From: Myxococcales bacterium
Lineage (GTDB): Bacteria > Myxococcota_A > Polyangia > Haliangiales > SHYZ01
Direction: 5' to 3'
Length of the DNA stretch: 64,000 nucleotides
Assembly (NCBI GenBank): GCA_009692535.1
Contig: SHYZ01000002.1
Span: 8,444-72,443 of the forward strand
Positions 26,217-41,526 of the stretch are shown in pieces. The position numbers were made by a program, and so were the translations under genes. Every line of letters begins with the position of its first letter. The stretch's first letter is position 1. The notes beneath the pieces are model-generated. The model had not been told where the DNA came from. It did no database searches and saw nothing but the letters and a program-made list of their open reading frames with translations.

Positions 26217-27290
26217 TCAGCTCGCGCCGGACCGCGCTTTCTCGAGCGCTGCGATCCGCTCTTCGAGCTTGGCGATGGTCTTCAGCGCCTCGGGGAGTCT
26301 CTCCGACGCGACCATCTCGCGCAGTGCCTGGCGGTGGGGGCGGGCCCAGAAGCCGAAGTAGTCGCCCGGCTCGGTGATGCTGCTGGCGATGCCGGAGCGG
26401 GCGCCGAAGCGGCTGTTGCTCGCCACCTTCACGTGGTCGGCGATGCCGGTCTGGCCGCCCATGAGGCAGTTCTCGCCGATCTCGCTCGAGCCGGCGACGC
26501 CGGTCAGGCCGGCGAGGATCGTGCGTGCGCCGACGCTGACGTTGTGGCCCAGGTGGACCTTGCTGTCGAGCTTCACGTCATCCGCGACGCGCGTCTCCCC
26601 GAAGCGCGCGCGGTCGATGGTCACGTGGTTGCCGACGTCGACGCGGTGGCCGACGATGACGCGTCCGATGTGGCGCAGGCGGACGGGGCCGGTCGGTCCG
26701 AAGCCGAAGCCGAAACCCTCGCCGCCGACGACCGCGCCGTGGCCGATGACACAGTCGTCGCCGATCGTCGCGCAGGCGCAGATCACGGCGTGCGAATGGA
26801 TGCGGCCGCGTGCGCCGACGACCGCGTCGGCTTCGACGACGGCATGCGGGTAGAGCCGGGTGCCGGCACCGATGCGGGCGCGCGGACCGACGACGGCGCA
26901 GGCGCCGATCGCCACGCCTTCGCCGAGGATCGCGGTCGCATCGACCACAGCGTTCGGGTGCTGGCCCGTCTCATTCCACGGTGATGGCCAGAGCCCGAGC
27001 TCGTCGATGACACGGTTCTGCGCGATCTGCGGCATCGGCGTCACGATCAGCCGCTTGCCCGTCAGCTCCGCCGCCAGCTTCGGCGGACAGAGCAGCGCCG
27101 CCGCCCCCGACGCCTTCGCCGCCTCGAGGAAGCGCTTGTCATCGAGCGCCGCGATTTCGTTCGACCCCGCCGACTCGATCGGCCCGACGCCGTCGATGAC
27201 GACCCCCGCAGCACCGTCATCACCCTGCAACCGCCCTTGCACCAGCGCAGCAACCTGCGCCAACGTCAGCTGAACCTTGCGCTGCGCCAT
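26217..27290 (-). CDS. lpxD: UDP-3-O-(3-hydroxyacyl)glucosamine N-acyltransferase
   Basis: N-terminus MAQRKVQLTLAQVAALVQGRL. Hexapeptide-repeat left-handed beta-helix (GVAIGACAVVG.., IGDDCVIGHGAVVG, VGNHVTIDR). C-terminal helical tail. About 357 aa. Confidence 0.85.
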   Translation of the reverse strand: MAQRKVQLTLAQVAALVQGRLQGDDGAAGVVIDGVGPIESAGSNEIAALDDKRFLEAAKASGAAALLCPPKLAAELTGKRLIVTPMPQIAQNRVIDELGLWPSPWNETGQHPNAVVDATAILGEGVAIGACAVVGPRARIGAGTRLYPHAVVEADAVVGARGRIHSHAVICACATIGDDCVIGHGAVVGGEGFGFGFGPTGPVRLRHIGRVIVGHRVDVGNHVTIDRARFGETRVADDVKLDSKVHLGHNVSVGARTILAGLTGVAGSSEIGENCLMGGQTGIADHVKVASNSRFGARSGIASSITEPGDYFGFWARPHRQALREMVASERLPEALKTIAKLEERIAALEKARSGAS

Positions 27291-27354
27291 CGACTGCCCT
27301 CCCATGAGGGGGCGCATTCTGCCGCGCCCGCCGCCGATGCGGGCGCGCGGTCGG

Positions 27355-29484
27355 TCAGCGTGCGGTACTGGCTGCGACGACGTCGTCGCCATCGCCGGCG
27401 ACGCCGTTGGGTCCGGCCGATCGGATCGCGATCGCGCCGCCGGTGATCTCGAGCGTGAAGGGCCGGCGCCAGGGATCCCACAACGCCGCGCGGTCGGCGA
27501 CATAGCCCGGCGCGGCGCCGCTCGGAAGGAGTTCGTCCAGCGTTGTCGGGGGCCGGCCGCGTGCAGCGACGCAGGACTCGACGGCGACCACCAGCCGACG
27601 CGCGGCGACGCGGGTCCGCTTGAGCGCGAGGTCGGGCTCGATGAGGCGCAGCAGCCCCTGCGAGCCAGCGCGGTTCTGGAGGCGCGTCAACAGCGTCGTG
27701 ATGCGATCGAGCGACGCCACCGCGTCCTCGTCCGGGAGCGTGCGCACCCGGCCGAGCAACGGCCGGGTGGCGGCGATCGCCAGCTCGCGATCGAGCGGGG
27801 CCAGCGCCGTCAGTTCCTCGATGCGCGTGACCGCCTCGCTCAAGTTGGCAACGTCGGGGCAGGCGGCGATCGCCTTCGACAGCGCCGCCACCGCCGACTC
27901 CCGCAGCGTGGTCCGCGCCGCTGCGTGCTCGTCCGTGTTCGCCAGCGCGAGTCCGGCGAGGCAACGCGCGACGCGCGAACGGTCGAAGCTCGCGAGCGCG
28001 GCGGGGAGCTGCGCGAAGGCGTCCTCCACCTGGGCGCGACGATCAGTCTCGCGCTGCGCCGCAACGCGCAGCATCTCAGCCTCGCGCTCCGCCTGCAGCT
28101 GCTGCATCTCCAATCGCCTGGCGAGTTCGGCGATCCGCTCCTGGTCCATTCGTTCATTTTCCGCCGCGACGCGCGCCTCCTCTGCGAGCTGGCGCTGCGA
28201 CTTCAGGCCAACCCGGCTGCCGACCCGCTCCTTCGCGGCCTCGGCGAAGTTGGGATGGGCGGCCTCTGCCGACAGCAGTGCCTCGCGCACTCGCCGCGCG
28301 ATCCGTGCGTGTGTCCGGAAGCGCCCTTCCGTGACGAGCTGCTCCAACAACGGCAACTGCTGTCGATCGACGGCGTAGCACGCATAGCCGGCGACGGCGA
28401 CGTCGATGACATCGGGCAGGTCGCCGAAGGTGCGTTGATCAATGGCGGCGAGGAGATTGATCTTGAGGCCGGCCGTCGCCAGGTCGGGCGTGTCGGCGAG
28501 GACCGCGACGAGGTCGACGACGCTTGCGCCGGCGTCGCGCGCCAGTTCGAACAGCTGTAGGAACCGCTCGCCCTCGGCTGAGTCGCCGGCTGCAATGTGC
28601 CGCAGGAACCAGTCGCGCAGCGCCGCCGACGTGGCGGCGGACAGCACCGGCGCCACCTGCTCGCGGCGCGGCCGAATCAGGCGATTGAACGCCGCCGGCA
28701 GCGCCGCCGAAGACACATTCGAGTCCGCCAGCAGCGCCAGCAGCTCCGCGGTGAGTTCGGCCTCGGCCACCGCCGGCCGCCCATTCGACAAGCCAAGCAG
28801 CGGCCCGAACTGGTCGATGACCGCGATCGCGAAGTCACTCTTCCGTTGCCGCAAAGCCTCTTCGCGCGCGCGCAGCGCGAGTGCGTCCCGGCAACGGAAC
28901 CCGTCGTCGCGCAGCAGTTGCGCGACCACGTCGAGCTGCTGGGTCTGGAAGGCGTAGACGACGTAGCGCGGCAGGAGCTGGCGCACCTCGTCGGAGACGA
29001 CGCCCCAGGTCTCCTGCTCCAGCAGGACGAGCAGTGCGAGTTTCGCTGGCACGGTGGCGTGATCCTGGTGGTCGAACAGCAGCGCGACCAGCTCGCGTGC
29101 GTCGTCGTCGACTCGCTCGATCGAGTCGCCGGCGGCCGCCGTCGCCGCATCGAGGGCGACGCGGAACAAGCCGACGAAGACCTGCTGTTCGACCTCCGCG
29201 CCAGCGACGATCCGTTCGGTGAACCAAGTGCGCAGCGCCAGCTTGGTTGCGGCAGGAAGCGTCCCCTTCACCACGTCCCAGCGCGGCCGGAACGCCAAGT
29301 TGAATCCAGCGGCGACGTCGGCCGCACTCCGCGCGATCTCCGCGATCGCGAGGATCTCCTCGGTGATCGTCGCGTCGCCCGCGACATCCTGCGCCGCTGC
29401 TGCTGGCGCCTCCTGACCGTGCAGCTGAGCAGCGAGCGACTGGCCCGCGACGATCGCGCCGGCAAGCGAGACGAAGAGCTTCAT
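27355..29484 (-). CDS. Secreted alpha-helical protein with internal duplication, coiled coil and C-terminal GspG-like (T2SS pseudopilin globular) domain
   Basis: ATG 29484 gives the Sec-type leader MKLFVSLAGAIVAGQSLAAQ. The C-terminus RGRPPTTLDELLP..ALWDPWRRPFTLEITGGAIAIRSAGPNGVAGDGDDVV resembles the GspG DPWG..Y..S.G.DG...DD motif. Confidence 0.6.
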   Translation of the reverse strand: MKLFVSLAGAIVAGQSLAAQLHGQEAPAAAAQDVAGDATITEEILAIAEIARSAADVAAGFNLAFRPRWDVVKGTLPAATKLALRTWFTERIVAGAEVEQQVFVGLFRVALDAATAAAGDSIERVDDDARELVALLFDHQDHATVPAKLALLVLLEQETWGVVSDEVRQLLPRYVVYAFQTQQLDVVAQLLRDDGFRCRDALALRAREEALRQRKSDFAIAVIDQFGPLLGLSNGRPAVAEAELTAELLALLADSNVSSAALPAAFNRLIRPRREQVAPVLSAATSAALRDWFLRHIAAGDSAEGERFLQLFELARDAGASVVDLVAVLADTPDLATAGLKINLLAAIDQRTFGDLPDVIDVAVAGYACYAVDRQQLPLLEQLVTEGRFRTHARIARRVREALLSAEAAHPNFAEAAKERVGSRVGLKSQRQLAEEARVAAENERMDQERIAELARRLEMQQLQAEREAEMLRVAAQRETDRRAQVEDAFAQLPAALASFDRSRVARCLAGLALANTDEHAAARTTLRESAVAALSKAIAACPDVANLSEAVTRIEELTALAPLDRELAIAATRPLLGRVRTLPDEDAVASLDRITTLLTRLQNRAGSQGLLRLIEPDLALKRTRVAARRLVVAVESCVAARGRPPTTLDELLPSGAAPGYVADRAALWDPWRRPFTLEITGGAIAIRSAGPNGVAGDGDDVVAASTAR
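28270..28689 (-). repeat. Second copy of a protein-level tandem duplication inside CDS 27355-29484
   Basis: FNRLIRPRREQVAPVLSAATSAALRDWF...QQLPLLEQLVTEGRFR...REAL aligns with the first copy. Confidence 0.6.
28849..29304 (-). repeat. First copy of a protein-level tandem duplication inside CDS 27355-29484
   Basis: FNLAFRPRWDVVKGTLPAATKLALRTWF...QQLDVVAQLLRDDGFR...REEAL. Shared pattern FN..RPR...L.AAT..ALR.WF..I.AG...LF..A.DA. Confidence 0.6.
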
Positions 29485-29534
29485 GGCGTCCTCACAGTCG
29501 GATTCAGGATCGGAGAGAGTCCGTCGTTGGTCAG

Positions 29535-31517
29535 TTACCGGATGAACCGCGCCGCCCAGCTCCGCACCACTTGGCCGTTCAGCACGTGCACCCGACGCAG
29601 CCTCGCGAGCGTGCGCGCGCTGAAGGTCGACAGTGGCAGGTGGACGATGTGGTGGCGCAGCCGTTTCGCCGTCGCGACCAGTTCGGGGCGCGGCGGCTTG
29701 GCAGCGACGTAGGCGACGAAGCGGTCCTTGGCGTGGAACAGCGCGGCGAGCAGCAGGCGCTCGGACGGGCGGCGCGCTTTCTCGAAGCGCAGGTCGTCCC
29801 AGATGTCGGGGATCGCGATCGGCGGGAAGAGGAACATGCAGCCGCCGTAGCGCGCGCGGCCGATGCCGGGCCCGACCAGATCCGCGAGCGGATCGGTGGC
29901 ATAGAAGGCGAGGGTCGACTCCTGCTGATGCTCCGCCATCCAGGTCATGCGCAGCGGGAAGCGGGTGCCGGCGTCGTCCTCCTCGAACACCAGCACGACG
30001 GCGCCGACCTTGCCCGGCACGCGCGGCTCGATCTTCACGTGGATCTTCCCGAGCGGCAGATCGCGCAGCGTCTCGCGGATCGCGAGGCCGTCCTTGAGCG
30101 AGCTCGAGAACTCCTCGGTGCGAACGCGATCGATGCCGGCCAGCGACAGCGTGCGATTCGAGACGTAGGCGCGCAGGTTCTCGATCAGGATGTCCTCGGG
30201 TGGCCAGCTGCACGAGGCATGCGGGTTCCACACCGATCTCCAGCGCTCGCGGTCGATCTTCGGGGGTTTGTCGTGGAGGCGCACCCGCTTCAACGTGCGC
30301 CAATCGCCAGGTGCGCGCGTGGTGATGCGCGCGACGGCGTCGCCGATGCGGGCGCGTTCGCCGGTCGCCTCGAACAGCAGGCCGGCGGCGGGGCCGTCGT
30401 AGGGCTCATCGGCGGGTGCTGCGGCAGGCGTCTTGCGCTCACCGCTCTCCGGCTCGAGTGAGTTCGGCGGATAGTGCGCGGCGACGTTCAGCAACGTGAG
30501 CGCGAAGTCGTTGCCGATGACGCCCTTCGCGGCGACGACCATCGAGTAGAGGTCGGGCGTGAGGCGATTGCGGCCGACCACGAGCTTGCGCAGGAAGTCG
30601 AACAGCGTGGCGAGCGCCGCCGGCGTTGGCTGCTCGAGCGAGTCGCCTTCCTCCTTGCGGTAGAGGTCGCGCGTCGCGAGGACCAGTTCTTTGATCGCGA
30701 GGATCTGGTCGTGACGGGCCAAGTCGATCGAATTGCGATGCTGCTCCCACGCCCATGTCACGAACGGGATCTCGCCCAGCACGTGGAAGAGCGACGCGGG
30801 GTGGACCGGCGCGAGGCCGACGTCGTCTGCTGCCGGACCGCAGCCCGAGTGCAGAGCTCCGCTGCCGTCGACGAGGTGCTGGCGGATGCGCTCCCAGTGC
30901 GCCATGCCACAGAGGAACAGCACGTCGCCGCGCTGCTCGTTCGCCTGTGCCAGGACTGCGAGTCGCGCGGCCATGTGCCGCTCGCGCAGATGATCCTCGG
31001 GAGTCGGCGGATGCTCGCGCTGGATCGTCGGCAGCGCGGCGAACCAGAATTCATCGACGCCGAGCGTCAGCAGCGCGTGCGGATCGGGCATGACGAAGCG
31101 CCGGCCGGCGAAATCCTCGACTTCGGCGTCGACGAAATGAACCGGCACGCGTTCGCCGCGCGCGATTCGCAACGCCTCGACGATCGCGTCGCACGGATCG
31201 ATCGGCACGTACCACGCGCGCAGTCCGGTCGCGGCCGAAACGTCATCGTCGTGGCCGCGCGCCTCGCGTTCGGGGCTCCACGGCGCGCCATCGAACTCGC
31301 TGCGCGTCCAGTCGCGGTAGACCGCCGCGTGCACCTTCGGCAGCAGATCGAGCCCCTTCAATATCGCCGCGCGCACGCTCGGCGGGAGCTCGACCGCGAG
31401 GGCGGCATGGCGCTTCGAGAGCATCCGCTCGCGCACCGCCACCGCGAACGCGACCCGCCCGTGGACGAGCGGGATCACCTCGACGTTCTTCCAGCGCAGT
31501 GGCGGGGGCAACGGCAT
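29535..31517 (-). CDS. TraB/GumN-like (possibly DUF5682-like) large protein
   Basis: N-terminal VEVIPLVHGRVAFAVAVRERML..ALAVELPPS and later RERHMAARLAVLAQ..VLFLCGMAHWERI resemble the two TraB/GumN His motifs. The gene starts 8 nt after the AAA+ gene's stop. Confidence 0.45.
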   Translation of the reverse strand: MPLPPPLRWKNVEVIPLVHGRVAFAVAVRERMLSKRHAALAVELPPSVRAAILKGLDLLPKVHAAVYRDWTRSEFDGAPWSPEREARGHDDDVSAATGLRAWYVPIDPCDAIVEALRIARGERVPVHFVDAEVEDFAGRRFVMPDPHALLTLGVDEFWFAALPTIQREHPPTPEDHLRERHMAARLAVLAQANEQRGDVLFLCGMAHWERIRQHLVDGSGALHSGCGPAADDVGLAPVHPASLFHVLGEIPFVTWAWEQHRNSIDLARHDQILAIKELVLATRDLYRKEEGDSLEQPTPAALATLFDFLRKLVVGRNRLTPDLYSMVVAAKGVIGNDFALTLLNVAAHYPPNSLEPESGERKTPAAAPADEPYDGPAAGLLFEATGERARIGDAVARITTRAPGDWRTLKRVRLHDKPPKIDRERWRSVWNPHASCSWPPEDILIENLRAYVSNRTLSLAGIDRVRTEEFSSSLKDGLAIRETLRDLPLGKIHVKIEPRVPGKVGAVVLVFEEDDAGTRFPLRMTWMAEHQQESTLAFYATDPLADLVGPGIGRARYGGCMFLFPPIAIPDIWDDLRFEKARRPSERLLLAALFHAKDRFVAYVAAKPPRPELVATAKRLRHHIVHLPLSTFSARTLARLRRVHVLNGQVVRSWAARFIR

Positions 31518-31525
31518 GACCGCGC

Positions 31526-32518
31526 TCAGCCGCGCTTGCCCTTCGGCGGGGGCTTGCCGCCATCCCCCGGCTTCCCCTCATCTTCCGCGTCGTCATCTTC
31601 CGCGTCGTCGTCATCGTCTTCTTCGTCGTCGAGGTCCTCGTCCGAGGTCATGAACTCGGAGAGATCCTTGACGTCCTTCGGGAAGAAGAGGCCAGCGGCG
31701 CGTTCCTCGAAGTTCTCGGCGTCGTCGCCGAGGACCTGCTTTACGGCCTGGTGGAACGCAGCGTCGATCGCGGTGCCGCGCGCGCTGTTCAGCTTGAGGG
31801 CGTAGCGCATGATGTTGATGCCGTCGCGCGTCGAGTAGTCGAGGTTGTGGCGGTGCGCCTCCTGCAGGAAGTTCGCGGTCAGGTCGAGCAGGTCGGCGGG
31901 CGCGAAGTCGACGTTGTACTGCAGGACCTGCCGCTCCTCGTCGCGATCGGGGAAGTCGACGAAGATCAGCGGCTGGATGCGCGAGACCATGTACTCGGGA
32001 ACCTCGTAGGTCGAGGCGTCGTCGTTCATCGTCACGCAGCAGCGGAAGTCCTCGTGCGCCGCGATCCGGACGCCGGCGACGATCGACTCGGCGTAGCGCC
32101 GGTGGTCGAGCAGTGGCGCCAGCGAGGCCCACGACTTCTCGGGCATCCGGTTGGCCTCGTCGAGGATCGCCACGCCGCCCTCGATCATCGCGCTCACCAG
32201 CGGCGAGGCGTGGTAGCTGATCTTCCCGGCGCCGGACAGCACCGGCGTGACCAGCAGATCCTCTGGCCGCGTGTCCGTCGTGCACTGATAGATGAAGGTC
32301 GGCTTGCCGAGCTTCTGCGCCGCCGCCTGCGCCAGCGTCGTCTTGCCCATCCCCGGCTTGCCGACCACGCGCGGCGTCAGCGGCAGGTCGCTCTTCGTCA
32401 CGCGCGTCCAGCAGGCGAGGATCTGCCCGAGCAGTTCCTCCTGGCCGATCCAGCGCACCGGCTGAGTGACCGGGTCTGCCAGAGTGAGGTTGATTTCGCC
32501 GAGGGTGTGGGTGCGCAT
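31526..32518 (-). CDS. MoxR/AAA_5-type AAA+ ATPase with poly-acidic C-terminal tail
   Basis: Walker A GKPGMGKTTLA and Walker B VAILDEANR. Motif LAPLLDHRRY..FRCCVTMN. Tail DEDLDDEEDDDDDAEDDDAEDEGKPGDGGKPPPKGKRG. Confidence 0.8.
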   Translation of the reverse strand: MRTHTLGEINLTLADPVTQPVRWIGQEELLGQILACWTRVTKSDLPLTPRVVGKPGMGKTTLAQAAAQKLGKPTFIYQCTTDTRPEDLLVTPVLSGAGKISYHASPLVSAMIEGGVAILDEANRMPEKSWASLAPLLDHRRYAESIVAGVRIAAHEDFRCCVTMNDDASTYEVPEYMVSRIQPLIFVDFPDRDEERQVLQYNVDFAPADLLDLTANFLQEAHRHNLDYSTRDGINIMRYALKLNSARGTAIDAAFHQAVKQVLGDDAENFEERAAGLFFPKDVKDLSEFMTSDEDLDDEEDDDDDAEDDDAEDEGKPGDGGKPPPKGKRG

Positions 32519-32674
32519 GGGGCGCGCGATGGTAGCGCCGCAGTTGGGGCGCGCGCGCCGCCGTCGGGAAGCGCGTTCCGTTCGCCGCCTCACCGGCCCA
32601 CCACGCTCCAGTCGAGCCGCGGACGGACGATCTAGTCCTGACCAACGAGCTTCCCCGCCGGTGCGGTCGGTGAA

Positions 32675-33145
32675 GTGGAGTCCAACACCGTGAGACGACA
32701 GCTACGGAACTCTCGCCGCCGCCAACGCGGCTTCACGATCATCGAGGCGATGGTCGCCTCGGCCGTCCTCTCCGTCGGCGTGGTCAGCCTGACCGGAGTC
32801 GCCGCCAACAGCGTGCGCCTCCATCAGGCCGGGCAGAGCAAGGCGACGGCGTTGCGTGGCCTCGAAGCTCAGGTAGCCACGGTCCAGAGCACCGCGTTCG
32901 CGGGGCTGCAGGCACTCGACGGGTCGACCTTCGACGCGGACACCTCGATCGTCGTGAGCACCGCCGCGCAGTACGGCGGAGAGACCTACACGGTCGACAC
33001 GCCCGCGACCGGCTCGATCAGCGTCACGGCGCCGACCGGCAATGCAGCCGAGCTACTCGAAGTCACGGTCGCGTTGACTTGGCAGGGCATGAACGGCGTG
33101 AACACGATGCAACGTCGCGTCCGTCGTTCGCGGCTGGGAGGCTGA
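32675..33145 (+). CDS. Prepilin-type N-terminal domain protein, small minor (pseudo)pilin (GspI/PilV-like), cassette 1
   Basis: Class III leader ...RRRQRG|FTIIEAMVASAVLSVGVVSL, with Gly-1, Phe+1 and Glu+5. GTG start at 32675 or 32690. Confidence 0.75.
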   Translation: MESNTVRRQLRNSRRRQRGFTIIEAMVASAVLSVGVVSLTGVAANSVRLHQAGQSKATALRGLEAQVATVQSTAFAGLQALDGSTFDADTSIVVSTAAQYGGETYTVDTPATGSISVTAPTGNAAELLEVTVALTWQGMNGVNTMQRRVRRSRLGG

Positions 33146-33148
33146 CCC

Positions 33149-33691
33149 ATGCGATCCCAACGCGGCATGACGTTGCTCGAGATCTCGATCTCGACGTCGA
33201 TCCTCGGGTTCCTGGTGTTCGCGGCGGCCACGGTGGCGAAGGTCGCGCTCGACGCGACGGGCGACGTTGTCGTTCTGGACGTGGCGGACGGCGTGGAGCG
33301 GCGCACCGACAGCCAGCTCGACGGTCTCCTGCTCTCCGCGAGCCAGGCCACGCTGCAGGGCATCCCCTCGAATCAGGGCAGCGTCGCCGAAACGATGCTC
33401 TCCGGCGTCGACTACCAGGACCTGCGATTCCGCCGGGTCGTCGGCTTCTTGGACGGCGCGCTGACCTACGAGCCGGCGAACGGCACGACGCCGATGCGCC
33501 TCTATCGCGCCGTCGATTCCTCCGGCACGGGTTCACTGGCCCTGGAGAACGGCGGACGCACGACGACGCTGGTCGCCGACGTCAGCGGCCTGACCTTCCT
33601 CCGCTCCGGCTCGAAGCTCACCGTCACGATCCAACACGGCCGCCACTCCGCGACCACCAACGTGCACGACCTCGTGTTGCGTGTGCCATGA
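33149..33691 (+). CDS. Prepilin-type N-terminal domain protein, mid-size minor (pseudo)pilin (GspJ/PilW-like), cassette 1
   Basis: ATG follows GGGAGG. Leader MRSQRG|MTLLEISISTSILGFLVFAAA with Glu+5. Confidence 0.75.
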   Translation: MRSQRGMTLLEISISTSILGFLVFAAATVAKVALDATGDVVVLDVADGVERRTDSQLDGLLLSASQATLQGIPSNQGSVAETMLSGVDYQDLRFRRVVGFLDGALTYEPANGTTPMRLYRAVDSSGTGSLALENGGRTTTLVADVSGLTFLRSGSKLTVTIQHGRHSATTNVHDLVLRVP

Positions 33692-34830
33692 AGGAACGAA
33701 TCATGCGATTCGCAGATTCTCCAGAACGCGGCAACGCGCTGCTGCTGGCGCTCGGGGCTACGACCAGCCTGATCGTCGCGGCCGGAACGCTGCTGGTCGC
33801 CGTGACTCACGAGCGCACGAGCTCCGAGCAGTCGGTGGTCAACTCGCAGGCGTGCGACGCTTCGGCCTCGGGTGCCGAGGATGGACTTGCGGCGCTGGCC
33901 AGCAACGCGAACTACACCGGCACCTTCCAGTTGACCTACGGCGGGCCGGTGGCCGACGTGACGGTCGTGGCATGGGCCAGCGACGGCGCCGACAACGACG
34001 GTGATGGCTCCGCCGACGAGGCGGATGAGGCGAACTACCTCTCGGTCACCTCGATCGGCCGCGTGAACGAGCAGCTCGACGGCAACGGAGCGCTGATCGA
34101 GCGCGCCTCGCGTCACGCCGACAGCACGACCCAGGTCGTCCTGCAGCGAACGCAGCTCAACCTGTCGGCGGACCAGGCGATCTACGTCGACGATGCCGCG
34201 TCGTCGTTCAAGTTCGCCGGCACCGCGTTCCTCATCAGCGGCAACGACACCAACCTCGACGGCAGCGCCGGGCCGAATGCGGCGAAGCCTGGCATCGGCA
34301 CGGTCGGCGACCCGGCGGGCATCAAGAGCCAGCTCAAGGCCAACCAGAAGCCGAAGGTGATCGGGCAGGGCGGCGCACCGAGCGTCGCCACCGTGCCCGA
34401 CATCGACCTGCCCGCCACGATGAGCTCGCTCAAGCCGATGGCGACGATCGTCTTCAACGGACCCGACGACACCTACAACGGCCAGCTCGGCGATTTCGTG
34501 AACCACGTACCGGTCATCACCCACGCCAAGGGCAACCTGCAGTTGAACGGCGGAACGAGCGGCTGCGGGATCCTGATCGTCGACGGCGATCTGACGATGA
34601 ACGGCAACTTCGATTACGCCGGCCTGATCTACTCGACAGGCGCGATCCGCTTCAACGGCGGCGGCGGCGGCAAGAACCTGCGCGGCGCGCTCTTCACGCT
34701 CGGTGCCGTGACCGGCGAGGACATCACGATCAACGGCTCGGTCGACATCCGCTACAGCTCGGAGGCGATCACGCTGATCAACACCCAGCTCTCGAGCGGC
34801 ATGGTGGTGGTGTCGTGGAAGCGCACCTGA
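33688..34830 (+). CDS. Large pseudopilin-like protein lacking Glu+5 (GspK/PilX-like position), Asp-rich Ca-loop motif and Gly-rich C-terminal region, cassette 1
   Basis: ATG 33688 overlaps the upstream stop (ATGA). N-terminus PERGNALLLALGATTSLIVAAGTLLVAV. Motifs DGADNDGDGSADEADE and GCGILIVDGDLTMNGNFDYAGLIYSTG. Confidence 0.65.
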   Translation: MKERIMRFADSPERGNALLLALGATTSLIVAAGTLLVAVTHERTSSEQSVVNSQACDASASGAEDGLAALASNANYTGTFQLTYGGPVADVTVVAWASDGADNDGDGSADEADEANYLSVTSIGRVNEQLDGNGALIERASRHADSTTQVVLQRTQLNLSADQAIYVDDAASSFKFAGTAFLISGNDTNLDGSAGPNAAKPGIGTVGDPAGIKSQLKANQKPKVIGQGGAPSVATVPDIDLPATMSSLKPMATIVFNGPDDTYNGQLGDFVNHVPVITHAKGNLQLNGGTSGCGILIVDGDLTMNGNFDYAGLIYSTGAIRFNGGGGGKNLRGALFTLGAVTGEDITINGSVDIRYSSEAITLINTQLSSGMVVVSWKRT

Positions 34831-34841
34831 GCTGCCGCCAC

Positions 34842-35705
34842 GTGCGGCGGCAAGGCATCGCGGGAGCGATGCTGGCTGGACTCGCCGGGTTTTGCGCCGT
34901 CGCCTCATCGGCGAGCGCGGAGGAGCCAGACGCGAAGCCGGAGGTTGCGCCACCGCCGCGGAAAGCGACGGCCGCGAAGGCGCCCCAGCTTGTCCGCGCT
35001 CGGGTCCTGCTCGATGGCGGCGAGGTCTGGGTCTGGCTGCTGGGTGCCGAGGAAGACGGGAAGCTCGCCCTCCTGCAGGACGACGGATTCATCGATTGGA
35101 TTGCCGCCGCACCCGAGCCGAAGTGGCTCGAGCGTGGCGATCAGCCGTTGGCGCAGGTTCCGCCGCTCCACTTCGCGGTCGGCCTTGCGCACGCCAGCGT
35201 CGCCGTGCGCGAGGTGTGCGAGGCGCTGCTCATCGCGCAGGGCCCGCTGGCGGCCGACGCGCTGGGCGTGCCGCTTCGGTCGGAGTCGGTCGAGGCCCGC
35301 CGCGGTGCGCTCGCGGTGCTGGCGGCGCAGCCGGCCAAGCAGTGGCGAGCGCGCATCAAGGAGCGACTGCGCGATGCCGATGTCGGCGTCCGACGGGCGG
35401 CGCTGACGGCCTACGCGGCGCAGAAGCCGGATGACCTGCGCGTCGCCTGCTTGGATTTGCTCCGCTTCGACGAATCGGCGCTGCTCCATCACGACGCGAT
35501 CAGCTTGCTCGGGCACCTCGGCGATCGCCGAGCCATCGACGTCATCGTCGCTCATCTCGACAGCTGCGACGACCGCAGCGAGCGGCTGGTCGCGTTCGAC
35601 GCCCTGCGCCGCATCACCGGGATGCGCTTCGGGCGCGATGCCGACGCGTGGCGAGCATGGTGGACCAACCACCGCGCCGAGGTCCTCGGCGAAGGCGCCG
35701 AGTGA
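34842..35705 (+). CDS. Secreted HEAT-repeat protein
   Basis: GTG 34842 gives the leader MRRQGIAGAMLAGLAGFCAVASSASA. HEAT/PBS-lyase-like repeats (DADVGVRRAALTAYA, LGDRRAIDVIVAHL, RLVAFDALRRI). C-terminal DADAWRAWW. Confidence 0.65.
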   Translation: MRRQGIAGAMLAGLAGFCAVASSASAEEPDAKPEVAPPPRKATAAKAPQLVRARVLLDGGEVWVWLLGAEEDGKLALLQDDGFIDWIAAAPEPKWLERGDQPLAQVPPLHFAVGLAHASVAVREVCEALLIAQGPLAADALGVPLRSESVEARRGALAVLAAQPAKQWRARIKERLRDADVGVRRAALTAYAAQKPDDLRVACLDLLRFDESALLHHDAISLLGHLGDRRAIDVIVAHLDSCDDRSERLVAFDALRRITGMRFGRDADAWRAWWTNHRAEVLGEGAE

Positions 35706-35879: not shown

Positions 35880-36353
35880 ATGAGGCGAACGATTGAGCTG
35901 CGGGATGGTGCGACGCGCCAATCGCGTGGCGAGCACGGTCTCACCCTGATCGAGACGCTCTGCGCGGCGGCAGTCCTCACGGTGGCGGTTCTCGGCCTGT
36001 CGCAAGTCGCGCTGACCACCCACGAACTGCAACAGAGCGGCGCGCAGAAGGCCGCTGCGACTCGCACGCTCCAGGACCAGATGGCGAGGGTGCAGTCGAC
36101 GGACTTCTCTGCCCTCCAGACGACCTTCGATGGCGCCGCCTTCGACGTCGTCCTCGAGGGTGCCACCACGGCGGCACTTCCGCCGCAGGACGGCGATGTC
36201 GATGGCCGCGCCGGCAGCATCGCCGTGACCGCGCCGACCGGCGCTCCCGCCGACCTGCTGCTGGTCGTCGTGCGGGTGGATTGGTCGGGCCACAATGGGC
36301 CGCAATCGATCACCCGCGCGCTGCGCGTTTCGCGCGTCGGGAGCGGATCGTGA
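35880..36353 (+). CDS. Prepilin-type N-terminal domain protein, small minor (pseudo)pilin, cassette 2 (paralogue of 32675-33145)
   Basis: Leader ...SRGEHG|LTLIETLCAAAVLTVAVLGL with Glu+5. Shared motif SI(S/A)VTAPTG.A..LL.V.V...W. Confidence 0.75.
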   Translation: MRRTIELRDGATRQSRGEHGLTLIETLCAAAVLTVAVLGLSQVALTTHELQQSGAQKAAATRTLQDQMARVQSTDFSALQTTFDGAAFDVVLEGATTAALPPQDGDVDGRAGSIAVTAPTGAPADLLLVVVRVDWSGHNGPQSITRALRVSRVGSGS

Positions 36354-36925
36354 CCGGCGAGCCTTGGCGAGCGGGTCGCCGCGGTGGCTTCACCCTGATC
36401 GAGGTCCTGATCTCGACGGTGCTGTTGTCGTTCCTGATCCTGCTGGCCGGCACCGTCACGCGTGGCTCGATGAGCTCGACTGCGCGCAGCGTCGCGCTCG
36501 ACACCGCCAACGGCCGGACGCAACGCGCCCTCGACCGCGCCCGCGCGCACCTCGCCTCGGCGAGCCTCGCCACGCTCGAGGCCGCGCTGCCGGGCGATCC
36601 CGCGCTGCTGCCGATGGCCGACGATGTCGCCTGCGACAACATCGCGTTCCGCCAGGTGGTCGGCTTCGCCGCGGGTGCGCCGCTGCTCGACCCCGATCCG
36701 GCGGAGCTGCCGATGCGGCTTTGGCTGCAGGCGGACAGCGGGAGTGGGAGCGGGGGCACGCTCTGGTTCGACGACGGCACGCAAGCGGCGCCGATCGCAG
36801 GCGAGGTCGTCAGTCTCGACATCACGAAATCGGGCCGGCGCCTGGCGATTGTGATCGGCTTCGCCCGTCCCGATGCCAAGCAGTTCGCGACCACTGGTCT
36901 CTCGGTGGCGCTGGTGGTGCCATGA
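36350..36925 (+). CDS. Prepilin-type N-terminal domain protein, mid-size minor (pseudo)pilin, cassette 2 (paralogue of 33149-33691)
   Basis: GTG 36350 overlaps the upstream stop (GTGA). Leader ...AGRRGG|FTLIEVLISTVLLSFLILLAG with Glu+5. Confidence 0.7.
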   Translation: MTGEPWRAGRRGGFTLIEVLISTVLLSFLILLAGTVTRGSMSSTARSVALDTANGRTQRALDRARAHLASASLATLEAALPGDPALLPMADDVACDNIAFRQVVGFAAGAPLLDPDPAELPMRLWLQADSGSGSGGTLWFDDGTQAAPIAGEVVSLDITKSGRRLAIVIGFARPDAKQFATTGLSVALVVP

Positions 36926-38088
36926 AGCGGAGGGAACTTCCGATGAAGCGACGATCGACGAATGGGCAGGGCTCCAACCGTGAATGCGGCAGCGCGATGC
37001 TGCTCGCGCTCGGAGCCGCGCTGCCGCTGATGGTGGCGGGAGGCACGATGCTGTTCGCGGTCGTTCGGGAACGGACAGTTGCCGAGCAGGTCGCGGCGGA
37101 AGTCGCCGCGGAAGATTCCGCCGCGTCCGGCGCTCACGACGCGATCGCGCTGCTGACCGGCGATCCGAGCTTCTCCGGGAGCTACGTGCTGAGCGTCGAC
37201 GGTCACGTCGCGGACATCACCGTGACTTCGTGGGCGCACGACGGCAGCGACAACGACGGCAACGGCCTGATCGACGACGCGGCCGAGGCCGATTGGTCGA
37301 CGGTCACCTCCGAAGGGCAGGTGAACGTCCGGTTCGACGCGCAAGGCAACTTGATCGAGGGTGCGACGCGCACGGCGCGGTCGACGGTGGAAGCGATCGC
37401 CTGGTTCGAACGCATCACGATTCCGGCGGCGCAGGCGTTCTACTGCCACGATCCCGAGGCGGACTGGGACTTCATCGGGACGGCGTTCCGGATCTCGGGG
37501 CACGACCTGAACCCCGACGGCTCGGCCGGCGGCGCGGCGTCGCTTCCTGGCATCGGCACGCCTGGCAGCACGGCCTCGATCACCAAGCAGCTCGCTTCCA
37601 ACCAGAAGGGGCGCGTGAACGGGCAGGGCAAATTCCCGAGCGTTCGCAAAGTCAGCGGAATCGACGTCGACACGCTGATCACCGACTTCTCTCCGTTCGC
37701 GGCAGTGACCTACGACGGACCCTTCGACGTGCTTGGCAACGTCAATCTCGGCGATCGCACGGCACTCCTGCCGCAGGTCACCTACGCGAAGGGTGATCTC
37801 AAGCTGAGCGGGACGACGACCGGTTGCGGCGTGCTGCTGGTCGAGGGGAATCTCGAAGTCACGGGCGCGCTCGACTTCGCCGGTCTCGTGGTTGTGGGCG
37901 GCAACACCTCGTTCCGAACTGGCAGCAACGTGCAGATCCTCTGGGGCGCGCTGGCGACTGTCGCGACCGTGTCCGGTGAAGACGTCGAGATCGGCGGCAA
38001 CGCGACGATCCAGTACAGCTCGAGCGTGCTGAGCACGGTGGGCTCGAACATGTCGGGCCTTCGGCTCAAGTCCTGGACGCAGCGCTGA
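36922..38088 (+). CDS. Large pseudopilin-like protein lacking Glu+5, cassette 2 (paralogue of 33688-34830)
   Basis: ATG 36922 overlaps the upstream stop (ATGA). N-terminus NRECGSAMLLALGAALPLMVAGGTMLFAV. Motifs DGSDNDGNGLIDDAAE and GCGVLLVEGNLEVTGALDFAGLVVVGG. Confidence 0.65.
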   Translation: MKRRELPMKRRSTNGQGSNRECGSAMLLALGAALPLMVAGGTMLFAVVRERTVAEQVAAEVAAEDSAASGAHDAIALLTGDPSFSGSYVLSVDGHVADITVTSWAHDGSDNDGNGLIDDAAEADWSTVTSEGQVNVRFDAQGNLIEGATRTARSTVEAIAWFERITIPAAQAFYCHDPEADWDFIGTAFRISGHDLNPDGSAGGAASLPGIGTPGSTASITKQLASNQKGRVNGQGKFPSVRKVSGIDVDTLITDFSPFAAVTYDGPFDVLGNVNLGDRTALLPQVTYAKGDLKLSGTTTGCGVLLVEGNLEVTGALDFAGLVVVGGNTSFRTGSNVQILWGALATVATVSGEDVEIGGNATIQYSSSVLSTVGSNMSGLRLKSWTQR

Positions 38089-38103: not shown

Positions 38104-39225
38104 ATCGCCGGTGCCGGGTCGCGGTGAAACGGGAGAGGACTCGGCCAGCAGCAGGTCGATGGCGCGGTCGATGGCATGGTCGGTGGCGAGGGCGGCCGTG
38201 CCGTCGGGTTGAGTTGGTTCTCTCGGTTCGGTCGGTCCTGGCAGTCCGAGCCATTTTCCGCGGATGACGCCCTGCGCGTCGATCAGGTAGAGCGTCGGCA
38301 GGCCGGCCACGTCCCATTGGCGGAACAGCGCTCCTTCGGATGGGTCGCCATCGAGGAGGCTCGGCCACGCCATCGGGCGAGCCGTGAAGAGGGCGTCGAG
38401 CGCCGCGCCGGGCGGATCGCAATTCACGCCGAGGCGGGCAAACGGCCGTTCAGCAAGACGCGCCGCCTGCGCGCGTGCGGCTGGCAGCGCCGACAGCCAC
38501 TCCTCGCACCAGAACGCGAAGAACTCGACCAGCACCACCTTGCCGCGGAAGTCGGCGAGCGCGAGCGGGGTGCCCGTGCGATCGCGTCCCGCGAGCGGCG
38601 GCGCGACGCAACCGATGCGCAGATGTCGCAGCGCGAATTGGGCCGCGCGAGCGGGCTCGTCCCAGTGGGCGCCGAGCTGACTTTGCAGCGCGCCGAACTC
38701 CTTGGCGAATGCATCGAGCCGGTCGATCAGCGCGACGACCACGGCTTCGTCGAGGGGCGCGGACCAGTCGAGCTGGCGCTCGCGATCGAGGATGCGCCAG
38801 CGGTAGGCGGCCTTGAGCGGCTGCGAATGCGTTGCGGCGTCGATGCGCACGAGCAGCGCGTCGGCTTTCGCGGCCAGCCAAGGCGGCGCCTGCATGTAGA
38901 GCAGTGGCGCCGCGAGTCGCTCGTCGTCGGCGAAACGGGTGGCCAGCGGCTCAATCGCGGTTTCCCACAACGCGATCGTCGCCGGCGCCTCGACCGACCC
39001 CGCGAGGTCCGCCGCGAACAGCAGCGCGTCGAGCTCGCCGGGCTGGCCACGTTGCGTCCGCGCGAGTTCGAGCGCCGCGCGGCTTGCTTCCGCGACTTCC
39101 ACCGCGTCGAGCCACCGCCCTTTCTGCTGCGCCGCCGCGATCCGTGCGTCGACCTGCTGCTTCAGCGCTTCGAATGCATCGCCCGGCGCACCCTGCAGCA
39201 GCACCGCCACCACCCAACTTCGCAT
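38095..39225 (-). CDS. TlpA-like thioredoxin-fold protein with degenerate C-E-E-W motif and N-terminal helical domain
   Basis: ATG 39225 follows GAAGGAG. Motifs FRGKVVLVEFFAFWCEEW and GLPTLYLIDAQGVIRGKWLG (cis-Pro region). Same architecture as the upstream gene. Confidence 0.7.
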   Translation of the reverse strand: MRSWVVAVLLQGAPGDAFEALKQQVDARIAAAQQKGRWLDAVEVAEASRAALELARTQRGQPGELDALLFAADLAGSVEAPATIALWETAIEPLATRFADDERLAAPLLYMQAPPWLAAKADALLVRIDAATHSQPLKAAYRWRILDRERQLDWSAPLDEAVVVALIDRLDAFAKEFGALQSQLGAHWDEPARAAQFALRHLRIGCVAPPLAGRDRTGTPLALADFRGKVVLVEFFAFWCEEWLSALPAARAQAARLAERPFARLGVNCDPPGAALDALFTARPMAWPSLLDGDPSEGALFRQWDVAGLPTLYLIDAQGVIRGKWLGLPGPTEPREPTQPDGTAALATDHAIDRAIDLLLAESSPVSPRPGTGDQR

Positions 39226-39318
39226 CGCCGCGCTCCTTCGGGTCCGCCGCAGAACGAAACCGGGCCGGCGCGTTTTGCACACCGGCCCGGAGGATTGCCG
39301 ATCAGCGCGGGCGCTTGG

Positions 39319-40482
39319 CTACTCCGCGCCCGCCTTGCCCTTCAGCTTGGCACCCGCGGGATTCTTCGCCTCGGCGACGAGCGTCTCGATCTCGCGATCG
39401 AGCGCCTCGTCACCCGGGCTGCCCAACCACTTCTGCCGGATCTTGCCGGTGTGGTCGACCAGGTAGAGCGTCGGCCAACCGCGCACGTTCCAGGCACGCG
39501 AAATGGGTCCTTGCGTGCCCTCCTCGCCGTTCCAGAAGCTGCGCCAGGTGATCTGCTCTTCCTTGAACTTCGGCTTCATCGCCGTGAGATCGGAATCGCT
39601 GTTCACACCGATCAGCGCGAATGGCTCATCCTTCAGCTTGTTCACGAGCGACCGCTCGTGCGGGAACATGGCCCGGCAAGGGCCTCACCAGTACCCCCAG
39701 AAGTCGATCAGCACCACCTTGCCGCGGTAGTCGGAGAGCTTGAACTTCACGCCGTCCAAGTCGGGCGCCTCGATCTCCGGCGCCATCCCGCCGACCTTCA
39801 AGTTGACCAGCGCGTAGCTGGTGTTTTTGGTCCACTCGGCGTAGGTCCCGCCCTGCACGCTGTCGACCATGCCGAACTGCTGGCCGAACGTGGCGAGGTC
39901 GGCGAGGAGCTTTGTCTCCAGCTCCGGCGTGAGCGGCGTGTCGCCCGCAGCATCGGCGCGTTGCGACAGCGACAGGTACGCGGCCGCCGCCTTCACCGCG
40001 ACGTTGTTCGAACGGATGAGCTTCGTCGCGTATCCCGCCGCCTCGGCCTTCGCCTTGGCCGGCGAGGGGAAATTCATCACGAAGGTCGCCATGCGATCGT
40101 CGTCGATGAAGTCGGTGAACAGCTTCGAGGCGCAATCGCGCCACGCTTGCAGCGACTTCTCGCTGGTCGGTTTCACGTACGGGTCCGACGTCAGCGCGAG
40201 GATCTGGCTCAGCGCGTCGAACTCGGCCGGCTCGCCGGCGCTCACGTCGTAGATCTTCTGGCAGCGATCGATGAAAACCTGCAGCTCGGACTCGCTCATC
40301 GACGGTGCCTGCACGCCCGCGGGCAGGTCTTTCTTCGCCTTCGCCGAATTGCTGCGCAGCGTCGCGAAATAGTCGCTCTTCACTGCACTGACCGAATCGT
40401 CGTTGACCGAGTCGTCCTCCCGCGCCTGCAGCGGTGGGCTCGCCGCGACGGCAAGCCAAGCCAGGAACAGCCAGTGTTTCAT
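39319..40482 (-). CDS. TlpA/ResA-like thiol:disulfide oxidoreductase, candidate selenoprotein (U-G-P-C; UGA at 39685-39687)
   Basis: ATG 40482 follows AAAGGAG. Signal peptide MKHWLFLAWLAVAASPPLQA. The frame continues through the TGA: YRGKVVLIDFWGYW-U-GPCRAMFP...IGVNSD...GWPTLYLVDHTGKIRQKWLG. The two track ORFs are in the same frame. Confidence 0.6.
39643..39684 (-). promoter_or_regulatory. Candidate bacterial SECIS: two hairpins immediately 3' of the UGA
   Basis: mRNA reads GGCCC-UUGCC-GGGCC (39684-39670), then CACGAGC-GGUC-GCUCGUG (39660-39643). The apical loop GU lies about 36-37 nt from the U of UGA. Confidence 0.45.
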
Positions 40483-40569
40483 CCGTGCTCCTTTCTTCGA
40501 TGGGGTCGGGCGGGGAAGCCTACGGTTCCGCTCACCAGAGGACGAGTCGTCGCGGGTTACGCTCCGGCG

Positions 40570-41526
40570 ATGGCTCGCTCGATCCCGATCCTCCCGCTGT
40601 CGAAACGGCGTGCCCACGTCAGCGGATTCGGCGCCGAGCTGCGTACGGCGTGGCGCGATTTCGGTTTCGTCGGGATTGTCGAGCACGGGATCACGGAGGA
40701 CGTCGTCCGTGCGGCGCTCGCGGGCGCGCGCGCGTTCTTCGCGCTGCCGGACGCGATCAAGCGGCGCTACGAGGTGGTCGGCGGCGCCGGTCAACGCGGC
40801 TACACGCGGCTTTGCGTCGAGAAGGCAAGAGACCAGGCGCTGCCCGATCTGAAGGAGTTCTGGCACGTTGGGCGTGAGGTGGGGCGCGACGATCCGCTTG
40901 CCGCGATCCTGCTGCCGAACCTCTGGCCCGACGAGGTGGCCGGTTTTCGCAAGTCGCAGCTCGCGCTCTTCGCCGCGCTCGAGCGCCTTGGCGGCGAGCT
41001 TCTTGAGGCGCTCGCGCCGACGTTGGGGCTGCCGGCCGGCTGGTTTGCCGCACGGATCGCCCGCGGCAACTCGATCCTGCGCGCGATCCACTACCCGCCG
41101 CTGCCGCGCACGGCAGCCCATGTCGCCGCGCCGACCCAGGTTCGCGCCGCCGCGCACGAGGACATCAACCTGATCACGCTGCTGGTCGGCAGCGACGAGC
41201 CGGGCCTCGAACTCCAGACACGTGCCGGCGAATGGCTGCCGATCACCACGCTGCCCGGCACCGTCGTCGTCAACGTCGGCGACATGCTGCAACGGCTCAC
41301 CAACGGCGTGCTGCCATCGACAACCCATCGCGTCGTCAACCCGTCGCCGCCGTGGGACACGCGTTCGCGCCACTCGATCCCGTTCTTCCTCCACTTCGAG
41401 CCGGAGGTCCTGATCGAGACGCTGCCGAGTTGCATCAGCGCCGACCGGCCGAACCAGTGGCCCACGCCGATCCGCGCGCACGACTACCTCGAGCAGCGGC
41501 TGCGGGAGATCGGGCTGCTGGCATGA
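40570..41526 (+). CDS. 2-oxoglutarate/Fe(II)-dependent oxygenase (isopenicillin N synthase-like family)
   Basis: Start at ATG 40570 (MARSIPILPL). Motifs ILRAIHYPP, AAHEDINLITLL (H-x-D), LPSTTHRV (distal His) and RHSIPFF (Arg-x-Ser). The upstream part of the 1116-aa track ORF is antisense junk. Confidence 0.8.
   Translation: MARSIPILPLSKRRAHVSGFGAELRTAWRDFGFVGIVEHGITEDVVRAALAGARAFFALPDAIKRRYEVVGGAGQRGYTRLCVEKARDQALPDLKEFWHVGREVGRDDPLAAILLPNLWPDEVAGFRKSQLALFAALERLGGELLEALAPTLGLPAGWFAARIARGNSILRAIHYPPLPRTAAHVAAPTQVRAAAHEDINLITLLVGSDEPGLELQTRAGEWLPITTLPGTVVVNVGDMLQRLTNGVLPSTTHRVVNPSPPWDTRSRHSIPFFLHFEPEVLIETLPSCISADRPNQWPTPIRAHDYLEQRLREIGLLA

Follow-up and report, generated by a model that had tools for sequence, protein, structure and literature searches.

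A candidate two-gene module of a MoxR-class ATPase and a partner without a VWA domain, related in part to YehL-YehM

MoxR-class AAA+ ATPases are nearly always explained through partner proteins that carry a VWA domain. The described systems closest to the one considered here are CbbQ-CbbO and NorQ-NorD, in which the gene of the ATPase is followed directly by that of a larger partner, and the yehLMPQ cluster of E. coli, in which the gene of an AAA_5 ATPase (YehL) precedes that of its partner (YehM). For the latter, a search of the literature on DUF5682, on YehM/YehL and on the combination of DUF4132 with MoxR found no functional study. Here we analyse a 64,000-nt stretch of contig SHYZ01000002.1 (G+C about 69%), the whole of which we call the window, in which the gene of a 330-aa AAA+ protein is followed on the minus strand, after a gap of only 8 nt, by the gene of a 660-aa protein (P660). 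The reading that we favour, and hold with moderate confidence, is that these two genes form a cytoplasmic MoxR-type module without a VWA component, which is related to YehL-YehM at the level of the partner's N-terminal domain and lies beside unrelated genes of lineage-specific occurrence; as part of this explanation, the module would be ancient and vertically conserved in the Planctomycetota.

Compared with CbbQ-CbbO and NorQ-NorD, the window has the same type of ATPase (i.e., a single AAA_5 module with GxxGxGKT and hhLDExNR motifs, for which CbbQ and NorQ are the nearest solved sequences at E 1e-11 to 1e-9) and the same order of an ATPase gene and then, directly, a larger partner gene. It differs in that P660 lacks a VWA/MIDAS domain and no VWA gene lies nearby, and in that the ATPases of the window's family have a conserved tail of DPLHPD followed by a poly-acidic run. 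The likeness to YehL-YehM is of another kind: The gene order is again AAA_5 ATPase and then partner, the N-terminal ~200 aa of the two partners are homologous, and the residues of a 2His/2Glu motif are colinear in YehM and P660. However, only this N-terminal domain is common to the partners, beyond which P660 (~420 aa more) and YehM (~540 aa more) are unrelated; the ATPases themselves are only distantly related (pairwise E 0.015); and the window has no equivalents of YehP (VWA), YehQ (SWIM) or YehI (DUF4132).

The ATPase and the 660-aa protein

The two genes and their parts lie as follows (models were made with AlphaFold2, AF2, and their local confidence is given as the predicted local distance difference test, pLDDT):

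31526-32518, minus strand: gene of the AAA+ ATPase, 330 aa, with an ATG start and its TGA stop at 31528-31526
31529-31642, minus strand: acidic C-terminal tail of the AAA+ protein (aa ~293-330), sequence DEDLDDEEDDDDDAEDDDAEDE...PPPKGKRG
29535-31517, minus strand: gene of P660, 660 aa, with its ATG at 31517
30798-31487, minus strand: N-terminal alpha/beta domain of P660 (aa ~11-240), like the N-terminal part of DUF5682 and TraB-TIKI proteins
30468-30797, minus strand: middle helical domain of P660 (aa ~241-350), with AF2 helices at 240-346 and a pLDDT of ~90
29538-30380, minus strand: C-terminal domain of P660 (aa ~380-660), the most conserved part of the protein

The AAA+ protein scores 77.2 bits against Pfam AAA_5 (cut-off 22) as against 34.4 bits for AAA_3, a difference that speaks against an assignment to MoxR proper, and no curated equivalog fits it (the NCBIfam model GvpN gives 27.8 bits against a cut-off of 266.8). 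Its closest solved chains, found by phmmer among the sequences of the PDB, are those of CbbQ (6l1q, E 1e-11; 5c3c), NorQ (9qh4, E 1e-9) and Midasin (1e-8), followed by MoxR (2r44, E 2e-4). Judged by sequence, the protein is thus a single-module AAA_5 ATPase of the MoxR class and of the CbbQ/NorQ-like kind, which upholds the first-pass annotation of this DNA in calling it MoxR-type. The same annotation had read in it a Walker A motif (GKPGMGKT), a Walker B motif (ILDEANR) and the tail DEDLDDEEDDDDDAEDDDAEDE with the basic end PPPKGKRG; all are present, and both Walker motifs are invariant in 23 orthologs. Orthologs lie beside P660 genes in 22 other loci, where they are 51-80% identical to the window protein (51-57% across orders) and share long invariant blocks, and their hallmarks are a QCTxDTRPEDLLVTPVL block and the tail of DPLHPD and acidic residues.

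This tail had been singled out as unusual. An acidic-then-basic tail is indeed present; however, the orthologs from Isosphaeraceae, Pirellulaceae, Planctomycetaceae and other groups all end in GLGDFFFxxxDPLHPD and then a poly-D/E run, often with F, Y, L, I or V as the last residue, whereas the basic end PPPKGKRG is limited to the window protein and, partly, to one other locus (L011). Because all orthologs carry FFxxxDPLHPD with poly-D/E, the acidic tail is a family-wide feature, and only the terminal PPPKGKRG is specific to the lineage. As a separate observation, the tails of the orthologs in L016, L040, L045, L065, L067, L082 and other loci end in ...DEDF, ...SELF, ...DELEF or ...DDAY, and such a single hydrophobic or aromatic closing residue recalls the C-terminal docking peptides known from other chaperones. 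In the window protein, basic residues take its place. We also considered binding of the acidic tail to a basic C-terminal domain of P660 through complementary charge, and set it aside as weak, the net charge of that domain being +15 in the window protein and +4 at the family median. A metagenome scan with the AAA+ protein yielded four uninformative loci, its matches being dominated by the poly-acidic pattern.

To P660, no family in Pfam, NCBIfam or PADLOC gives a match. It nevertheless belongs to a large family of uniform length and architecture: At least 235 proteins are homologous to it over their full length, the most divergent at 35% identity, and its relatives are spread over at least 592 species (of the 600 candidate pattern matches listed in a scan of one genome per species, 592 encode a relative). 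Nearly all of the matches listed bear the label Planctomycetota; among them are the cultured Singulisphaera acidiphila, Tautonia sociabilis and Planctomicrobium. Members of the family can be recognized by their CSWPPED and DGLxIRETLR motifs. The window itself comes from a metagenome-assembled genome that NCBI labels 'Myxococcales bacterium', and nearly all listed relatives of both P660 and the AAA+ protein are planctomycetes; by these sequence relationships, the source organism is probably a planctomycete, or its label outdated.

The linkage of the two genes was assessed in a sample of 80 loci from different species by all-against-all clustering of open reading frames (ORFs), and further searches (tblastn) were made in 99 fetched loci. 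Apart from the AAA+ gene, no neighbour of P660 recurs; this gene is found on the same strand in 32 of the 80 loci at a median of 78 bp upstream. Where enough upstream DNA was available (73 loci), the AAA+ gene is adjacent, i.e., less than 400 bp away, in 26 (~36%) and within 10 kb in 6 more.

The AF2 model of P660, built from an alignment of 31 sequences, has a pLDDT of 84 and a predicted template modelling score of 0.77, and resolves three domains in the order of an N-terminal alpha/beta domain, a helical domain and, after a disordered linker (aa 357-378), a C-terminal alpha/beta domain. Neither sequence nor structure connects the whole protein with a solved one: A sequence-profile search of the PDB gave only noise, and Foldseek comparison of the full model with the PDB gave nothing with an E-value below 0.3. 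The C-terminal domain in particular has no match to VWA by sequence or by Foldseek, and hhalign finds no similarity between the helical and C-terminal domains and the rest of YehM, YehP, YehQ, YehI or YehL. Yet it is here that the family is most constrained, with at least 12 positions, all polar or aromatic, that do not vary in any of 201 homologs (S437, E441, D442, E446, D476, R485, T525, W526, E529, E533, S534 and H644). Since these residues are invariant in 201 of 201 proteins while the motif of the N-terminal domain varies, we place the conserved function of the family in the C-terminal domain.

The N-terminal domain, by contrast, has recognizable relatives. At the level of sequence profiles it proves homologous to the N-terminal domain of DUF5682/YehM: Aligned by hhalign with a profile of 22 DUF5682 (YehM) proteins, the P660 family profile reaches a probability of 87% and an E-value of 3.9e-6 over 186 columns, the match covering aa 11-220 only. 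The Pfam model DUF5682 is matched by 5 of 31 family members (best E 5.5e-5), and Erythro_esteras weakly by one; the window protein itself does not match DUF5682 (PF18934, a profile of ~700 positions) at E-values up to 10, as against 330.8 bits for E. coli YehM. Four residues of P660 (H19, E43, E179 and H207) are equivalent to H11, E35, E176 and H202, which are invariant in the DUF5682 alignment, and they keep the order and the context of the 2His/2Glu motif of active TIKI/TraB/Ere enzymes (PMC6254334). Of the 201 homologs, 78 have this motif as HEEH, among them the window protein and the rest of its clade, and ~94, which are of the Planctomycetia type, as H-P-[IVA]-D/E. Because the TIKI-type motif has been lost in about half of the family, hydrolysis by the N-terminal domain cannot be its conserved function, and hydrolase activity of this domain, if any, would on sequence grounds be limited to certain clades.

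How far the resemblance extends to TraB proteins is a question of degree. The domain resembles the superfamily of TraB/PrgY/GumN, TIKI and erythromycin esterase in being an alpha/beta domain with colinear h-H-G, hhhE, RExxM and hhCGxxH motifs, and a Foldseek search of the viral structure library BFVD returned a single outstanding match, annotated 'TraB family protein' (E 5e-3, probability 0.99). Unlike the members of this superfamily, the P660 domain has two further domains fused to it and would be coupled to an AAA+ ATPase, and its motif is degenerate in half of the family. Pfam TraB_PrgY_gumN matches neither the window protein nor the 31 family members; hhalign of the P660 and DUF5682 N-terminal domains against an alignment of nine TraB/GumN sequences brings the four motifs into register at a probability of 1-10% and an E-value of 0.003-0.05, which is not significant, nor is the alignment of the two domains with YbaP alone. 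The TraB/GumN-like histidine motifs that had been noticed in P660 are real, HEEH being intact, the best fold match is to a TraB-family protein, and the likeness is probably one of remote homology, not of family membership.

Neighbours of the pair

The genes that adjoin the pair, and the spacer that separates it from the plus-strand genes, are the following:

27355-29484, minus strand: gene of a 709-aa protein (P709), with its ATG at 29484
27367-27627, minus strand: GspG-like T2SSG globular domain of P709 (aa ~620-706 of 709), from Pfam, phmmer and fold matches
26217-27290, minus strand: lpxD, 357 aa, its identity confirmed by the Pfam domains LpxD and Hexapep
32519-32674, strand not applicable: divergent spacer of 156 bp between the start of the AAA+ gene and the first pseudopilin gene

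The four minus-strand genes are co-directional and separated by 8 nt (AAA+/P660), 50 nt (P660/P709) and 64 nt (P709/lpxD), and a GAGGA precedes the ATG of P709 at 29484. Public gene calls made independently on identical contigs yield these genes too, of 330, 660, 709 and 357 aa (NCBI names the first 'AAA family ATPase' and the second 'hypothetical protein'). All gene coordinates and spacings of the first-pass annotation prove correct; the spacer, put there at 155-170 bp, measures 156 bp. It was likewise correct that the usual MoxR partner is missing: Genes for VWA, GspD, GspE or GspF proteins occur neither among the ~40 ORFs of the window that were scanned nor in the Pfam-annotated gene tables of the related loci L083, L084 and L085. 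The first pseudopilin gene (Pfam N_methyl) begins at 32675 on the plus strand. No sigma-70-like promoter was found in the 156-bp spacer or the region, and an Rfam search of both gave no match; nor is the spacer conserved, its place being occupied by two extra genes in the sister genome (L085). Between the stop codon of P709 and lpxD, a GC-rich 9-bp stem-loop (27323-27347, minus strand) was considered as a terminator and rejected, since its stability does not exceed that of shuffled sequence (z -1.33); it is probably a by-product of base composition.

If the four genes formed a conserved unit, the unit should be recognizable in related genomes. Three loci bear on this most directly: that of the sister genome L085, and those of L083 and L084, whose P660 proteins are 72% and 56% identical to that of the window. 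When P709, LpxD and all seven proteins of the pseudopilin cassettes were used as tblastn queries against the 99 loci, P709 and a pseudopilin cassette were found only in L085. There, the genes of the window recur in the same order, but genes on the opposite strand interrupt them: A beta-lactamase gene separates the AAA+ gene from P660, and a gene of the short-chain dehydrogenase/reductase type separates P709 from lpxD. Two extra genes lie, in addition, between the pseudopilin cassette and the AAA+ gene. None of the inserted genes is found in the window. In L083, the AAA+ gene lies 5 kb from P660, with genes of a sigma factor, a kinase and a PD40 protein in between; in L084 the AAA+ and P660 genes overlap, with lpxD divergent upstream and a sulfatase following; P709 and the cassettes are absent from both. 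The interruptions in L085 and the restriction of P709 and the cassettes show the compact 'operon' of four genes to be a local arrangement. Thus, the operon proposed earlier stands as a description of tight, co-directional spacing in the window and falls as a conserved unit, and of the four elements whose co-occurrence had been put forward as a check (the AAA+ gene, the TraB-like gene, the gene with the GspG-like tail and the cassettes), only the AAA+/P660 pair recurs, the rest being found, among the 99 loci, in L085 alone.

The lpxD gene has a somewhat wider distribution: In three related lineages it is no more than ~2.3 kb from the pair (window, 26217-27290; L085, 15078-16145; L084, 7703-8764), with differences in side and orientation; at a tblastn E-value of 1e-4 it was not found in the other 96 loci, L083 included.

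P709 consists of a Sec-type signal peptide (its N-terminus, MKLFVSLAGAIVAGQSLAAQ, looks Sec-like by eye), two tandem helical repeats of ~175 aa, a coiled-coil stretch, a helical region and a C-terminal T2SSG domain. The repeats represent a tandem internal duplication (aa ~60-230 against ~265-430; 35% identity, E 1e-24). Against a Pfam T2SSG cut-off of 21, the C-terminal 134 aa reach 18.8 bits and the two full-length homologs 15.5 bits each, and phmmer of the C-terminus against PDB sequences gives no match. A phmmer search of 1.84 billion representatives returned 22 short proteins that match only the C-terminal region of P709 (E 1e-6 to 1e-3), of which nine of the ten tested carry T2SSG, and the AF2 model of this region, of moderate confidence (pLDDT 67), has as its top PDB matches GspG (3g20), PulG (5o2y) and EpsG (3fu1), with probabilities of 0.82-0.99 and a template modelling score of ~0.55. 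The C-terminal ~90 aa, which share with GspG/PulG/EpsG the T2SSG fold and the motifs LWDPW... and SAGPNGVAGDGDD, are a genuine T2SSG (GspG) domain, and the earlier description of P709 as a Sec-exported helical protein ending in ~90 GspG-like residues holds on the strength of remote homologs and fold. Unlike GspG and its relatives, however, the domain here ends an exported helical protein of ~600 aa with an internal duplication, and P709 has no N_methyl match, no prepilin leader, no N-methylation motif and no hydrophobic alpha1N; it cannot be a pseudopilus subunit of the usual kind. Its sole full-length homolog, at 58% identity, is in the sister genome L085, and no full-length relative beyond its own 50%-identity cluster was found among the 1.84 billion representatives. 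We regard P709 as an exported protein of recent, lineage-specific origin with a recruited pilin domain of the GspG type, and as a neighbour of the AAA+/P660 pair, not a member of it.

Several other features of the window deserve mention. Beyond the spacer lie two paralogous pseudopilin cassettes on the plus strand (32675-35705 and 35880-38088), each with an N_methyl protein of ~131-157 aa, another of ~180-191 aa and a protein of 375 or 381 aa without a family; a gene for a HEAT-repeat protein (34815-35705) lies between the two. Because L085 has one cassette and the HEAT gene, the second cassette of the window is a recent tandem duplication. Duplication is seen again at 38200-40400 (minus strand), where genes of AhpC/TSA type and small thioredoxin-like genes are tandemly repeated, each L085 gene matching two places in the window; a plus-strand ORF that spans this region (38176-41526) is real only in its C-terminal 2-oxoglutarate-Fe(II) oxygenase part. 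At 11840-17325 (minus strand), two adjacent large sulfatase genes have N-terminal extensions of ~470-520 aa without a family match; the gene after the pair in L084 encodes a sulfatase as well. No anomaly of composition was seen in the window.

Alternative explanations and a proposed mechanism

The first-pass annotation had suggested, as a speculation, that the AAA+, TraB-like and GspG-tailed proteins and the divergent cassettes make up one non-canonical pseudopilus-related apparatus in which a MoxR-type ATPase replaces GspE. The idea is a natural one: The genes are tightly spaced and co-directional, they share a 156-bp divergent spacer with the first cassette, P709 does carry a T2SSG domain, the order of the genes is the same in L085, and no GspE-type ATPase is encoded in the window. 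But at least 592 species have the pair and neither P709 nor the cassettes, P709 itself is confined to two genomes, opposite-strand or extra genes break the L085 'operon' at three places, and the context already differs in genomes with P660 proteins of 72% and 56% identity. Moreover, P709 lacks the prepilin N-terminus that assembly into a pseudopilus needs, and has an export signal where the AAA+ protein and P660, as we read their sequences, have none, so that the proposed chaperone and its client would reside in different compartments. The lack of co-occurrence largely refutes this model, which we now consider highly improbable. Similarly improbable is a role of the module in envelope or lipid A biogenesis, for which the adjoining lpxD could be taken as a hint: At most 2.3 kb separate it from the pair in the window and L085, and also in L084, where it is divergent and on the other side, but its absence at the same threshold from the other 96 loci, including that of the close relative L083, makes residual synteny within one clade the simplest account. 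If, alternatively, the pair were a mobile MoxR-type system for conflict or for defence against phages, comparable to the MoxR-vWA ternary systems, in which MoxR-class ATPases do occur, the variation of the flanking genes between genomes would be expected; however, PADLOC gives no meaningful match for the AAA+ protein, P660 or P709, the AAA+ protein is very highly conserved across orders (51-57% identity), and the family is restricted to one phylum, uniform in length and architecture and free of any composition anomaly. Distribution in a single phylum, high conservation and uniform architecture fit housekeeping inheritance, and we think a defence function very unlikely.

A more serious competitor holds that the pair is an ATP-dependent hydrolase of the TIKI type, in which the AAA+ ring unfolds a protein substrate for, or presents it to, an active 2His/2Glu peptidase or esterase site of the P660 N-terminal domain, as in two-component AAA+ proteases, and the C-terminal domain serves as a scaffold. 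All aligned DUF5682 proteins and 78 of 201 relatives, as well as the window protein, have an intact HEEH motif; the motif is the one that active TIKI enzymes use (PMC6254334); the top fold match is a TraB-family protein; and in both the P660 and the YehM systems the gene directly follows that of a MoxR-class ATPase. Nonetheless, about half of the family has kept only one of the four motif residues, and the AAA+ gene is still adjacent in those clades, while the strictly invariant residues sit in the C-terminal domain. MoxR-class ATPases are not known to act as partners of proteases, which further counts against this explanation, and we judge it unlikely, if less so than the three discussed above. 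Somewhat better placed, though still to be entertained only tentatively, is a broader version of our own proposal: that the pair is a phylum-wide, VWA-independent machine of the MoxR type, in which the C-terminal domain represents a new enzyme or client-binding fold for a core process specific to the Planctomycetota and the N-terminal domain, shared with YehM, is a general module for coupling such proteins to MoxR-class ATPases.

The reading of the AAA+/P660 pair as a cytoplasmic two-gene module without a VWA component does not go unopposed, and four points weigh against it. The link to TraB consists of one Foldseek match (E 5e-3) and profile alignments below significance, Foldseek against the PDB being empty; about half of the P660 family has H-P-[IVA]-D/E in place of the TIKI-type motif; and in 41 of the 73 loci there is no AAA+ ortholog within 10 kb (a count that covers the surroundings of each locus only), which leaves an obligate partnership unproven. 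Finally, P660 and P709 lie side by side, 50 and 18 nt apart, in each of the two genomes with P709, and there may be a lineage-specific functional tie between them. We nevertheless treat P709, lpxD and the divergent cassettes as having become neighbours of the ATPase pair through local genome history, not as its partners.

Under the two-gene module that we favour, the AAA+ protein and P660 would act together. The ATPase presumably forms a hexameric ring, and P660 would stand in the place of its usual VWA adaptor. The N-terminal domain of P660, of TraB/TIKI type, could be the part that is coupled to the ATPase, because the homologous YehM is also encoded directly after a MoxR-class AAA_5 ATPase, YehL. 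The invariant C-terminal domain would then carry the core activity of the family, be it catalysis on a client or the binding of one, and the acidic tail of the ATPase (FFxxxDPLHPD and poly-D/E) is likely to be a docking or autoregulatory element. By analogy with CbbQ-CbbO, NorQ-NorD and YehL-YehM, the outcome might be the ATP-driven remodelling or maturation of a cytoplasmic target, in which P660 would serve as adaptor or enzyme.

These results remove a MoxR-driven pseudopilus as an unsupported explanation of the locus, and P709 illustrates that a large exported helical protein can acquire a GspG domain. What they leave is a MoxR-class ATPase that is highly conserved across a phylum and yet is paired with a partner without a VWA domain. 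If the broader version of our proposal is true, it would give the first functional handle on uncharacterised systems of the yehLMPQ type; and the pair offers a defined two-gene target for genetics in tractable planctomycetes and a testable link between two orphan systems.

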